A stretch of 64,000 bases of DNA from Escherichia coli (GTDB lineage Bacteria > Pseudomonadota > Gammaproteobacteria > Enterobacterales > Enterobacteriaceae): assembly GCF_003018255.1 (NCBI RefSeq), contig NZ_CP027440.1, one strand, 5' to 3'. The notes beneath the pieces are model-generated. The model was not told the origin of the DNA, did no database searches, and was given only the letters and a program-made list of their open reading frames with translations. A program made the position numbers and the translations under genes. Below are positions 9,100 to 63,872 of this stretch, piece after piece (position 1 is the first letter of the stretch; each line of letters opens with the position of its first letter).

Positions 9100-9170
9100 T
9101 GTTCTGGTTCAAGATTAGCCCCCGTTCTGTTGTCAGGTTATACCTCTCAACGTGCGGGGGTTTTCTCTTT
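9100..9170 (+). ncRNA. rdl: Rdl-like antisense RNA (antitoxin of ldr); ends approximate
   Basis: It lies on the plus strand, antisense to the ldr 5' leader. The sequence ..CAAGATTAGCCCCCGTTCTGTTGTCAGGTTATACCTCTCAACGTGCGGGGGTTTTCTCTTT has a CCCCCG/CGGGGG stem plus a U-run, and resembles K-12 rdl as remembered. Confidence 0.45.
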
Positions 9171-25245: not shown

Positions 25246-25318
25246 ATTGGGCAGAATTAGCTCGGAGTAACAGGTTTTGAGTATTTACAGGAAGTGATGG
25301 TGGTGGAGGAAGGATTAC

Positions 25319-25408
25319 TCAGCGCTGCGCGCTTCGCCCTTCGGGTCGTTGCCTGCGGCCACGCTCTCTCGCTGGCGCTCGAGTCGAACCCTGGTCGAAG
25401 CTTCTCAT
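25319..25408 (-). CDS. tpr: Protamine-like peptide Tpr within the tyrT operon trailer (rtT region)
   Basis: Hand translation gives [29 protein letters not shown] (29 aa), matching Tpr as remembered apart from one residue. It lies in the single trailer repeat unit downstream of the tRNA genes. Confidence 0.6.
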
Positions 25409-25475
25409 CCTTCCCCGCTTGGGCAGAATATTTAATCGCGGATTCGTTTGAGAGTTCACGGACTTTTGAAAGTGA

Positions 25476-25560
<85 letters not shown>

Positions 25561-25594
25561 AGGGGTAATTCAAATTTTGAGGTAATGCTTGAGA

Positions 25595-25679
<85 letters not shown>

Positions 25680-25713
25680 AGGGGTAATTCAAATTTTGAG
25701 GTAATGCTTGAGA

Positions 25714-25798
<85 letters not shown>

Positions 25799-56102: not shown

Positions 56103-56291
56103 TTATCCAGCCGGTGTTTCGTTATTCAGGTACAGCGATACTTTGTTTAACGGGAGACATTCACCGGAAATTTTTTGCTCGTCTCTTGCCTGATGGCAGG
56201 ATTCTTTACTGGCATAAATTCCGGTAATCACATTCTGTGGCTCACCCGTTATAAGAAAAACCGTCATTACCAGTGCAAATGCAGAAGTCAC
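56103..56291 (-). CDS. ydfD: YdfD-like small membrane/lysis protein (DUF1482-type)
   Basis: MTSAFALVMTVFLITGEPQNV..CHQARDEQKISGECLPLNKV.. resembles K-12 YdfD (MNSAFVLVLTVFLVSGEP..). 4-nt overlap with the dicB-like gene. Confidence 0.75.
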   Translation of the reverse strand: MTSAFALVMTVFLITGEPQNVITGIYASKESCHQARDEQKISGECLPLNKVSLYLNNETPAG

Positions 56292-56476
56292 TGCTGCCCT
56301 CCGAAAATGCCAAGTTTAAGAAGGGCAATTCTGGAGAGTATGGAATTATCATTGAGAAGATAAGGCTCATATTTTCTCATCCTGATGGCGTCCTCAGTAA
56401 ACTCCCGGTTACTGAGCAGAATACCAATATTAAAACACCCTTCAGACGTATTAACGTTTGGTAGTGACGTTTCCAT
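56288..56476 (-). CDS. dicB: DicB-like cell-division inhibitor
   Basis: METSLPNVNTSEGCFNIGILLSNREFTEDAIRMRK.. compared with K-12 DicB MKTLLPNVNTSEGCFEIGVTISNPVFTEDAINKRK.. (from memory). The length (62 aa) and the position after dicF are the same. Confidence 0.85.
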   Translation of the reverse strand: METSLPNVNTSEGCFNIGILLSNREFTEDAIRMRKYEPYLLNDNSILSRIALLKLGIFGGQQ

Positions 56477-56653
56477 TATCGCGTCCTCAACAATGAATTT
56501 TGTGATGTGGTGCCTGGTGCCTCCAGGTGACGTTAACCAGTTAACAATTAACGCCGGATTGTTAGTTGATGTCTGTTACGCCAGTAAAAGACCGCTTGTT
56601 TTAACTGTTCCGCGTGCGCTTAGCCGCATTCACCGCATCACAAAATACACTTT

Positions 56654-56693
56654 AAAAATGGCGGATATCCATTTCCGCCGAATCACCAGAAAA
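56654..56693 (-). ncRNA. dicF: DicF-like sRNA, short variant
   Basis: The minus strand reads UUUCUGGUGAUUCGGCGGAAAUGGAUAUCCGCCAUUUUU. The 5' UUUCUGGUGA and the GGCGG/CCGCC terminator stem plus U-run match K-12 DicF as remembered. It lies about 180 nt upstream of dicB, as in Qin. Confidence 0.5.
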
Positions 56694-56772
56694 GTGATAA
56701 CAGAGGTTGTTGTGGCGGTGTTGTCACTCAGGCGTATGGTCAACCTGACAACCCGGTGCATTTTCTGGAGCA

Positions 56773-57015
56773 ATGGAGGAAGCCCCAGCCATACTTACCG
56801 CCGCGCCATTTCGCGGATTGCCACAACCGGAAGCGCACGATCGAATTACATTTAACGACGACATATACAGAGAGACTAACTTCGCCGAGCGCTTTCGTGT
56901 TGTGTGCCTGCTTTTAACCACGTCAGGCGAGGTGGACCTGTTATTCCCCAACAACAAGGAGCTTGTTAATCTGGATATCCCCAACAACAATAAGAGTATT
57001 GAATGTGATCGCTGA
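56773..57015 (+). CDS. Hypothetical 80-aa ORF, first ORF of the opposite-strand cassette
   Basis: ORF-track entry (MEEAPAILTAAPFRGLPQPEAHDRITFNDDIYRETNFAERF..). It overlaps the next plus-strand ORF by 11 nt. The minus-strand ORF covering it is S/L/R-rich, like a shadow frame. The Shine-Dalgarno is poor and I recognise no homology. Confidence 0.3.
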   Translation: MEEAPAILTAAPFRGLPQPEAHDRITFNDDIYRETNFAERFRVVCLLLTTSGEVDLLFPNNKELVNLDIPNNNKSIECDR

Positions 57016-57519
57016 ATTAACGGCAGCAATGACGGCTATTCGTGAAACCGCTCAGATTACAAAACTAATGAACGAGGCAAAAACTCAAGCTGAAGTAAAT
57101 GCGGCTATTGGTGAACTGAACTCAAAGCTTGCATCTATTCAGCACGAATGCGTGTCTCTCGTTGAGCTGGTGAGCACTTATCAAGAAATAAATGCTTCTC
57201 TCAAAGCTAAAATTGCAGAATTTGAAAACTTTGAGGCTCAGACGGAAGGTTATATCCTTAACCAACTTGAGTCGGGAACTTTTGTGTACTCGAAGGAGGT
57301 AACCGTGAACGGCGGCAGCATAATCATGCATCTTTGTCCAAAATGTTTTGGACAAAAGATAGTATCGATACTTCAACCATTCCCGGTTAGAGAACATGAG
57401 TTTTTCATAAAAGCAGGTGCCTCTACTGTGAAAATCAGTTTCTTATGAATAAAAATCCGGATTATGTATCGCCTCCATCTATTGAGGAGTTGGCCAGAAA
57501 ACTGAACGGCAATCTGTAG
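57005..57519 (+). pseudogene. Coiled-coil plus four-Cys zinc-ribbon protein of unknown function, frameshifted at a T5 run (or carrying a homopolymer sequencing error)
   Basis: The frame from the GTG at 57005 (or the ATG at 57029) encodes heptad-rich sequence, then ..HLCPKCFGQKIVSILQPFPVREHEFF, and stops at 57448. The +1 frame after the T-run (57401-05) continues HKSRCLYCENQFLMNKNPDYVSPPSIEELARKLNGNL to a stop at 57519. This supplies the second Cys pair of a CPKC-N24-CLYC ribbon. Confidence 0.55.
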
Positions 57520-57632: not shown

Positions 57633-57785
57633 TTAGTCAGAGTTTCTTGCTAACCAGCGACGCGCGCCAGCTTCAGTTTTAAACGTTTTGCTTCTGGTAT
57701 ACGTCATCGCGGTAAACGTGCCGTCCTGGTTGGGGAATACTCCGCATACCAGAGATTCGTTGTTGCCAAGATTGAGCGTATCCAT
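57633..57785 (-). CDS. ydfA: YdfA-like DUF1391 protein (50 aa)
   Basis: Hand translation gives MDTLNLGNNESLVCGVFPNQDGTFTAMTYTRSKTFKTEAGARRWLARNSD. GAGG lies 6 nt upstream of the ATG. It is near-identical to K-12 YdfA as remembered, and too short for the ORF track. Confidence 0.85.
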   Translation of the reverse strand: MDTLNLGNNESLVCGVFPNQDGTFTAMTYTRSKTFKTEAGARRWLARNSD

Positions 57786-57939: not shown

Positions 57940-58000
57940 GGGGCGGGGTGGGTTGGTGATATAATGTACCTGCTGTTCATTAATGTAAAGTACTTTTAGT
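57940..58000 (-). promoter_or_regulatory. Early-left promoter with embedded operator O1
   Basis: The minus strand reads TTTACA-N17-CATTAT. The spacer contains the 17-bp site ATGTACCTGCTGTTCAT (57964-80, plus-strand reading), which has the same architecture as the two sites between the repressor and cro. Confidence 0.55.
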
Positions 58001-58080: not shown

Positions 58081-58500
58081 TCAGGAGGCTTTTTGTTTTT
58101 TCTTTCGCGCTAATTCTTCATAAATTGCGTTGTACTTCTGTTTTTTCTCCTCAAGAGTTTTTAAAAGTTCATCAGTTTCACTGTCAGGGAGTTCATCAAG
58201 AAGTTCAATGATGATTTTTTGCTTCGGACTTAACTCCTGATAGAAACGCAGGCTTCCGCTTTCTTCAGTGTCCTCCCCCAGAAGGTAAGTTGGTGTTGTT
58301 CCGATAAGTGCTGCCAATTCTTTCAGTTTCTCTCGACGGGGAATTGCCTCTCCATTAAACCATTTACTAACCGCTTTGGGTGTTAGCTTCATTCGACGGG
58401 CAATTTCTGCCTGCCTTCCGTGTTGTTCAAAGCCAGCATTTTCACAGGCTAGCGCAAGCCTGCTGGCGAACTCTTTACGCGCTTCATCTTCATGAACCAT
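58081..58500 (-). CDS. DicA-like prophage repressor (XRE HTH, no S24 peptidase domain)
   Basis: 139-aa ORF with an HTH (QAEIARRMKLTPKAVSKWFNGEAIP) and a C-terminal segment LSPKQKIIIELLDELPDSETDELLKTLE that parallels DicA LSPKELELLELFNALPESEQ. It is divergent from the cro-like gene. Confidence 0.85.
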   Translation of the reverse strand: MVHEDEARKEFASRLALACENAGFEQHGRQAEIARRMKLTPKAVSKWFNGEAIPRREKLKELAALIGTTPTYLLGEDTEESGSLRFYQELSPKQKIIIELLDELPDSETDELLKTLEEKKQKYNAIYEELARKKKQKAS

Positions 58501-63506: not shown

Positions 63507-63599
63507 AAACGGTTTGCGGGGAAAGAAGAGTTAAGTAGAATTGCTGCGGGTGCTTGAGGCTGTCTGCCTCGGGCATGCCGCCGTAAGGCAGACAGAGAA

Positions 63600-63703
63600 A
63601 AGCCCCAGTTAACATTACGCGTCTTGCAGGACGCTTAACATTAATCTGAGGCCCAATCTATGCTTCACAAACGTAGGTTAGCCTCTTACGTGCCGAAAGG
63701 CAA
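63600..63703 (-). ncRNA. sok: Sok-like antisense RNA and its promoter (approximate)
   Basis: Minus-strand promoter TTGCCT (63703-698)-N17-TAACCT (63680-75). The transcript would be antisense to the mok start and leader, and contains a GCGTC-N6-GACGC hairpin. The 3' end is not defined. Confidence 0.35.
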
Positions 63704-63872
63704 GGAGAAGCAGGCTATGAAGCAGCAAAAGGCGATGTTAATCGCCCTGATCGTCATCTGTATTACCGTTGTTGTGACGGCACTGGTAACGAGGAAAGAC
63801 CTCTGCGAGGTACGAATCCGAACCGGCCAGACGGAGGTCGCTGTCTTCGTAGACTACGAATCTGAGAAGTAA
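63660..63872 (+). CDS. mok: Mok-like reading frame (in-frame upstream extension of hok)
   Basis: 70-aa ORF MLHKRRLASYVPKGKEKQAMKQQ.., with the same organisation as K-12 MokC/HokC as remembered. Confidence 0.6.
   Translation: MLHKRRLASYVPKGKEKQAMKQQKAMLIALIVICITVVVTALVTRKDLCEVRIRTGQTEVAVFVDYESEK
63717..63872 (+). CDS. hok: Hok/Gef-family type I toxin (51 aa)
   Basis: MKQQKAMLIALIVICITVVVTALVTRKDLCEVRIRTGQTEVAVFVDYESEK is near-identical to HokC/Gef (MKQHKAMIVALIVICITAVVAALVTRKDLCEVHIRTGQTEVAVF..). GGAG lies 9 nt upstream. Confidence 0.9.
   Translation: MKQQKAMLIALIVICITVVVTALVTRKDLCEVRIRTGQTEVAVFVDYESEK

Follow-up and report, generated by a model that had tools for sequence, protein, structure and literature searches.

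The question raised by this locus is what remains of the small RNA DicF in an allele whose interior has been replaced and shortened. DicF is the classic example of a prophage sRNA that inhibits cell division, which it does through its pairing with the ftsZ mRNA; it is reported to raise EHEC virulence through pchA, and EHEC is said to carry "four dicF copies". In the 64,000-nucleotide stretch of Escherichia coli DNA analysed here (contig NZ_CP027440.1, called the window below), the minus strand at 56654-56693 reads TTTTCTGGTGATTCGGCGGAAATGGATATCCGCCATTTTT and continues with AAAGTG. The original prediction, in which these letters had been quoted exactly, took the element for a shortened DicF variant that keeps the 5' seed and may have a changed target spectrum.

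The dicB operon and the short dicF element

Judged by its gene content and order, the locus is a Qin-type dicB operon in a lambdoid prophage integrated at ompW. The genes were annotated from the RefSeq record NZ_AP042564.1, which is identical over the region, and by Pfam scans. A DicA-like HTH repressor gene (58081..58500, minus strand; Pfam HTH_3, 38.5 bits, and annotation) lies in operon orientation. Between this gene and ydfA, a candidate operon promoter, TTTACA-17-CATTAT (57961..57989, minus strand; consensus scan only), is found at the position that dicBp has in K-12. The first gene of the dicB-type operon is a ydfA-like DUF1391 gene (57633..57785, minus strand; Pfam DUF1391, 103.2 bits, and annotation). 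In place of ydfB and ydfC, the window carries an opposite-strand ORF of 171 aa (56933..57448, plus strand), coiled-coil-like and with a C-terminal CxxC motif. No Pfam family could be assigned to this ORF, the sole match being a sub-threshold one to DUF3450 (16 bits), and it resembles a moron that has been inserted in antisense orientation to the early-left transcript.

The conserved untranslated leader upstream of dicF (56693..56860, minus strand) is ~95% identical to that of K-12 save one replaced patch. It is followed by the short element, by the dicF-dicB spacer which forms the dicB 5' UTR (56477..56653, minus strand) and by dicB itself (56288..56476, minus strand). The latter is annotated as dicB in NZ_AP042564.1, and its intact 62-codon ORF gives a Pfam DicB score of 114.8 bits over the full 62 aa, as expected from the earlier claim that the variant sits upstream of an intact dicB. 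The window DicB is 58% identical to K-12 DicB. A ydfD-like DUF1482 gene (56103..56291, minus strand; Pfam DUF1482, 56.1 bits, and annotation) overlaps the end of dicB, and beyond it are found a 3'-5' exonuclease gene (exo), an excisionase gene (xis), an integrase gene (int) and then ompW. The element has the location of DicF: it belongs to the dicB operon of a Qin-like prophage, comes after ydfA-type genes and precedes dicB by ~180 nt.

The K-12 DicF sequence quoted in the original prediction proved exact and coincides with the annotated ncRNA dicF (NC_000913.3, 1649382-1649434). When the locus was aligned pairwise with K-12 over the dicF-dicB interval, the flanks were collinear with ~95% identity on both sides, over >400 nt, and the differences were confined to dicF: ACGTTT is changed to TTC and only 10 nt (AAAUGGAUAU) stand in place of the 27-nt interior, with a net loss of 19 nt. 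The short allele and K-12 dicF have in common nt 1-10, the GGCGG/CCGCC stem, the T-run and the downstream AAAGTG. This alignment agrees with the sharing of the first 10 nt, stem and trailing sequence that had been described, and with the replacement of a ~27-nt interior by ~10 nt. A plain internal deletion of DicF is ruled out, because AAAUGGAUAU is not contained in the K-12 interior and the differences extend to nt 11-15. For the 33-nt core of the short allele, 0 matches were expected in shuffles and, since the conserved flanks put the element at the orthologous site, a chance match is excluded. The alignment thus identifies the short element as the positional orthologue of dicF.

The predicted short dicF RNA is 39 nt long (UUUCUGGUGAUUCGGCGGAAAUGGAUAUCCGCCAUUUUU; 56654..56692, minus strand), its 5' end being set by homology with K-12 and its 3' end by the U-run. 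According to the alignment with K-12 and the fold, the RNA begins with a single-stranded 5' arm of 13 nt (UUUCUGGUGAUUC; 56680..56692, minus strand), unpaired in the predicted fold of the mature form, of which nt 1-10 (UUUCUGGUGA) are the same as in DicF and nt 11-13 differ. The arm is followed by a predicted terminator hairpin, GGCGGA-AAUGGAUA-UCCGCC (56660..56679, minus strand), with a 6-bp stem containing 5 G-C pairs and an 8-nt loop, and by a U-run (T5; 56654..56658, minus strand) that begins one base past the stem as in K-12 dicF. The predicted fold energies are -11.1 kcal/mol for the short RNA and -15.9 kcal/mol for K-12 DicF, whose hairpin is longer and bulged. Between 56000 and 58600, the short dicF hairpin was the only terminator-like site on the operon strand.

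According to Faubladier et al. (1990), cited in PMC12197685, DicF arises from the polycistronic transcript of the dicB operon, its 5' end being made by RNase E and its 3' end by termination or RNase III. The presumed RNase E site of the short allele, CACU/UUUC, lies within the leader (56693..56860, minus strand) and was placed by homology only. The A/U-rich cleavage context is conserved except for position -2, which is C instead of A, so that processing of the short allele may differ. In the predicted precursor folds of both K-12 and the short allele, the presumed site (A/UUUUC) falls in the loop of a small hairpin. The pairing registers of these hairpins differ (window 56693-56710, minus strand; K-12 locus L001, ~2865-2900), with UGUUAUCA/UGGUGACG in K-12 and AUCACU/GGUGAU in the short allele, whose perfect precursor stem is due to its own substitutions, A to C upstream and C to U in the arm. 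Some 15 nt before the point where dicF is presumed to start, the minus strand at 56706-56714 reads CACAACAAC, where K-12 has UGCAACGCC. The former contains CACAACA, the GcvB R1 target consensus (PMC4104026), and underlies a weak AgvB match (15 bits, E=4.9); this motif may be due to chance since it varies among allele classes.

The Rfam DicF model (RF00039) has a gathering score of 48 bits and scores K-12 dicF at 76.7 bits. No match to this model was found in the 64-kb window at gathering, in the 56300-57100 region at E<=10 or at a second short-allele locus (L034). A covariance-model score below threshold, which the original prediction had named among the outcomes that would refute it, was thus obtained, and the short element is an orthologous allele that stands outside the Rfam DicF family as modelled. 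Membership of other families was also rejected: AgvB (RF02702) reached 15.2 bits (E=4.9) over 56654-56723 against a gathering score of 56, STnc100 (RF02076) reached 33 bits against 47 over 56444-56661, in the dicF-dicB spacer rather than in the short RNA, and a local match to a plant snoRNA at the short dicF region was sub-threshold. The dicF-dicB spacer gives recurring sub-threshold STnc100 matches (30-37 bits against 47) in every allele class (L001, L007, L025, L046, L082 and L120), suggesting that STnc100, a candidate sRNA of Salmonella, corresponds to the homologous leader of dicB. Elsewhere in the window, Rfam matched three tandem copies of one long-variable-arm tRNA gene followed by RtT (25298-25798, minus strand), at a site where K-12 has two tyrT/tyrV copies, an rdlD-type antitoxin RNA (9101-9166, plus strand) and, further into the prophage, a sok antitoxin RNA (63548-63722, plus strand).

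Pairing of the short allele with known DicF targets

Genetic work has shown that DicF uses its 3' region to pair with the ftsZ RBS and its 5' end to pair with xylR, and that pykA requires both (Balasubramanian et al. 2016, PMC5069750). Pairing was scored as the sum of the hybrid energy and of the opening energies of both RNAs, with an in-house IntaRNA-like script, unbenchmarked and checked on K-12 DicF. This accessibility-aware score was adopted because plain RNA duplex folding, which ignores accessibility, gave unrealistically long duplexes for all pairs and was dropped. The K-12 DicF control reproduced the published sites on ftsZ, xylR, pykA and manX.

On ftsZ, K-12 nt 26-53 paired with positions -27..0 (hybrid energy -26.5 kcal/mol), and the total score was -8.9 for K-12 DicF and -5.1 for the short allele. 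The best ftsZ hybrid of the latter (-7.5 kcal/mol) is formed by nt 1-9, a pairing equally open to K-12 DicF. Nothing comparable to the pairing of K-12 nt 26-53 was found in the short allele, and the absence of the interior/3' ftsZ-pairing region, which had been supposed at the outset, is borne out. On pykA, the RBS paired with K-12 nt 26-43 (-22.4 kcal/mol; totals of -12.1 for K-12 and -6.5 for the short allele), and on manX the coding region at +35..+53 paired with K-12 nt 35-54 (-33.4 kcal/mol; totals of -11.3 and -3.4). The pchC leader of Sakai, located in the same prophage as the short allele, was paired at +18..+39 by K-12 nt 27-50 (-21.8 kcal/mol), and no equivalent pairing of the short allele with this leader was found in the scan.

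On xylR, positions +9..+20 paired with K-12 nt 6-15 (hybrid energy -15.9 kcal/mol), the total score being -12.2 for K-12 DicF and -5.4 for the short allele. The K-12 duplex, formed by GGUGACGUUU (nt 6-15), has 10 bp and -15.9 kcal/mol, whereas that of the short allele is reduced to 6 bp (GGUGAU) and -9.1 kcal/mol. The 5' arms alone were also compared with 150 shuffles. The K-12 arm beat 150 out of 150 shuffles on xylR, whereas the short arm was matched by 9% of the shuffles on xylR, 16% on pykA, 57% on ftsZ and 83% on manX.

All four known DicF pairings are thus lost or near shuffle level in the short allele. The original prediction that the 5' seed is kept is only partly right: nt 1-10 are indeed conserved but the xylR duplex uses nt 6-15, and the ten conserved nucleotides do not suffice for this duplex, the only validated one to be made by the 5' end alone. 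As for the changed target spectrum that had been proposed, it is possible, and according to the pairing scan the change consists mostly in the loss of known targets.

Distribution of the short allele and classes at the dicF slot

With a 70-nt query, the short allele was found at 526 places in 441 of the 5,426 complete E. coli genomes (8%). In O157:H7 EDL933 and Sakai, it lies in the serU-integrated prophage Sp14/CP-933U (NC_002695.2, 2,707,678-2,707,710), upstream of the dicB gene ECs_2768. The Sp14 repressor differs from that of the window prophage and is of the LexA-family CI type. The allele is therefore present in at least two prophage backgrounds, ompW and serU/Sp14, and it was also found on 31 IMG/VR contigs. 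No exact match to the short allele was found among 185,579 species-representative genomes, and a megablast of 50,697 phage records gave none either. When the phage records were searched in a distant mode, the slot flanks alone matched, in 76 records. One phage record, PP818812.1 (5889-6262; vB_Apl-pPE4), covers 96% of the dicF-slot query at 78.5% identity, with Actinobacillus pleuropneumoniae as an unexpected host.

In a set of 35 copies with their full context, 33 have the same 39-nt RNA and all 35 the same 13-nt arm. The two exceptions are single stem changes, one of which keeps a G.U pair while the other breaks the pair. Two flank subtypes were distinguished, CCGCCA-U5 in the window and CCGCCC-U5 in O157. 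After every short-allele copy with enough downstream sequence, dicB is intact (62 codons), with at least 13 protein variants. This spread in the population and this invariance show that the short allele is neither a private deletion nor an assembly artefact.

The slot itself (window 56654-56760, minus strand) was explored in IMG/VR with the flank anchors GGTTGACCATACGC N90-120 GGTGAATGCGGCT, which fetched at least 120 loci. Among the loci listed (L007-L126), at least 43 distinct inserts falling into at least five classes were recognized. Class A is the canonical DicF, with an Rfam DicF score of 76.7 bits and extended complementarity to the ftsZ RBS. The 64-nt K-12 DicF query was matched at 99% identity or more in 3,053 E. 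coli records, and it is present in 3,969 of the 5,426 complete genomes. Class B is the short allele (441 genomes), with no Rfam DicF match and no extended ftsZ RBS complementarity. Class C (153/5,426 genomes) combines a different 5' arm with a long perfect stem and has neither an Rfam DicF match nor ftsZ complementarity. Class D (296/5,426 genomes) joins a different 5' arm to the 3' half of DicF, scores 58.9 bits with the Rfam model and is complementary to ftsZ. Class E (108/5,426 genomes), with a different arm and a different stem, scores a sub-threshold 34.7-38.8 bits and has no ftsZ complementarity. Among the classes listed, the anti-ftsZ segment and an above-threshold Rfam DicF score are therefore found in A and D only.

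The GGCGG/CCGCC stem base and the U-run are common to all the classes listed, class D showing the compensatory change GGTGG/CCACC. A MAFFT alignment of all classes was used for the stem base only, since the arm of the short allele was misplaced in it. Classes C, D and E resemble the short allele by the same flanks, stem base and U-run and by a 12-17-nt unpaired arm before the terminator hairpin. In contrast, the upper stems of classes C and E are longer and perfect, B being the shortest among the classes listed, and B alone among them has the 5' arm of DicF. The slot alleles are thus mosaics in which an arm module is combined with a hairpin module, the terminator being common to all those listed. 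On one contig (L046, 4732-5215, minus strand), isrK (59.6 bits) and a C4 antisense RNA (76.7 bits) come after a class-E element in the place of dicB, and the dicF slot is joined there to a P1/P7-type immunity RNA module.

Probable role of the short allele and relation to known systems

On balance, we favour the reading that the short element is an ftsZ-blind dicF allele whose retained role would be operon-internal termination and processing ahead of dicB. Transcription would run through the leader into the 13-nt arm, the G+C-rich 6-bp hairpin and the U-run. By analogy with K-12 DicF, an RNA of ~39 nt would be freed by an RNase E cut at the conserved A/U-rich site together with intrinsic termination at the hairpin, and read-through transcripts would continue into dicB. 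The analysis establishes the orthology, the sequence and structure, the lost complementarity, the frequency in the population and the invariance, whereas processing, the efficiency of termination, the stability of the RNA and any activity of the 5' arm in trans are inferred. The short allele is predicted not to inhibit ftsZ translation, since it is devoid of K-12 nt ~20-47, the segment that pairs with ftsZ, pykA, manX and the pch leader, as well as of nt 11-15, needed for a complete xylR duplex. It probably no longer blocks cell division, which in the window prophage would be left to DicB alone. The cis role, that of an operon-internal terminator and processing signal before the toxic dicB, is most probably the selected one as it is retained in all alleles.

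A possible but less likely alternative is that the short RNA acts in trans as an Hfq-dependent sRNA with another spectrum, in which the arm UUUCUGGUGAUUC would be the seed and the terminator with its U-tail the Hfq module, and which may keep some of the targets of the DicF 5' end. The RNA does have the minimal architecture of an sRNA (unpaired arm, terminator and U-run), although at 39 nt it would be, to our knowledge, shorter than any characterised Hfq sRNA. The arm is invariant in all 35 copies and was kept when the hairpin payload changed, which could equally mean a selected seed, and the modular alleles (B with the 5' arm of DicF, D with its 3' half and another arm) suggest that both modules matter. 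On the other hand, each validated DicF pairing tested is lost or marginal, the residual pairing being weak (shuffle fractions of 0.09 on xylR and 0.16 on pykA), and the U-rich GUUUGG of DicF just upstream of the terminator has shrunk to UUCGG. A precedent for very short RNAs of this kind is known from EHEC, whose prophages encode functional sRNAs of 51-60 nt in which the 5' end varies and the terminator is conserved (Tree et al. 2014, PMC4104026). In the same work, none of the 64 orphan Hfq-CRAC peaks of Sakai lies at the short copy (2,707,678-2,707,710), which would speak against trans activity if the operon were not repressed in lysogens; the result is thus uninformative.

More speculatively, the slot could be a modular sRNA cassette in which arm and payload are swapped independently by recombination, class B being a functional ~39-nt sRNA whose arm UUUCUGGUGAUUC would act on non-ftsZ targets of the host or phage. 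If so, different prophages would reprogram different host pathways from one operon position, and DicB alone would handle division.

It is unlikely that the short element is a decayed, functionless dicF remnant, i.e. an sRNA pseudogene carried by linkage to dicB. The loss of all known target complementarity and of recognition by Rfam would fit such a decay, and many dicBF-bearing prophages are defective (PMC5069750). However, the interior has been replaced by unrelated sequence that still gives a clean G+C stem and a U-run, and across classes structural selection acts on the stem base. Moreover, this is the second commonest allele (8% of genomes), it is found in different prophages and remains invariant in 33 of 35 copies while the neighbouring sequence is mosaic, and one of its two singleton variants retains pairing as G.U. 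Finally, an unrelated terminator with a coincidental likeness to DicF can practically be dismissed: the absence of an Rfam DicF match and the shortness of the shared stretches (10 nt, 5+5 nt and 11 nt) would be compatible with it, but the flanks are collinear at ~95% over >400 nt with the same gene order, and intermediate or mosaic alleles connect the forms.

The short dicF allele is unannotated, missed by the Rfam model and seemingly undescribed. The main comparative survey took in only dicF copies of >99% identity (PMC5069750). In the literature searched, neither a description of a short or divergent DicF nor the short sequence itself in print was found, an earlier mention being still possible. 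Since 8% of genomes, including reference O157:H7, carry this unannotated allele devoid of the segment pairing with ftsZ, pykA, manX and pch, carriage of dicF-dicB does not amount to DicF activity. Arguments on DicF dosage drawn from copy number in pathogens thus require allele typing. The allelic series at the dicF slot is the more interesting by-product: it offers natural separation-of-function alleles, with the 5' arm only in B, the 3' half only in D and neither in C and E. Such alleles could reveal what the slot is selected for, whether ftsZ regulation in trans, other targets, or termination and processing before dicB.

Three known systems can be compared with the short allele. DicF of the K-12 prophage Qin occupies the same slot, between ydfA-type genes and dicB, with a leader and a spacer ~95% identical to those of the short allele. 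It measures 58 nt against 39 nt for the short allele, the U-run being counted in both, and differs from it by its complementarity to the ftsZ RBS, pykA, manX and the pch leader and by an xylR duplex of 10 bp instead of 6 bp. The AgvB/AsxR "anti-sRNAs" of EHEC (PMC4104026) are, like the short dicF, very short RNAs with a variable 5' part and a conserved terminator, forming an allelic series at a fixed lambdoid position. Unlike the short dicF, they are encoded downstream of PR' at a moron site, are transcribed from promoters of their own with primary 5' ends, and differ in sequence. As a third case, the terminators of lambda tL type share with the short dicF a G+C hairpin and a U-run placed in the early-left transcript before toxic genes (kil in lambda, dicB here). 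The lambda tL terminators are operon-internal intrinsic terminators of the early-left operon; they have no sequence relationship to dicF, whose terminator is, in other alleles, also the body of an sRNA that acts in trans.
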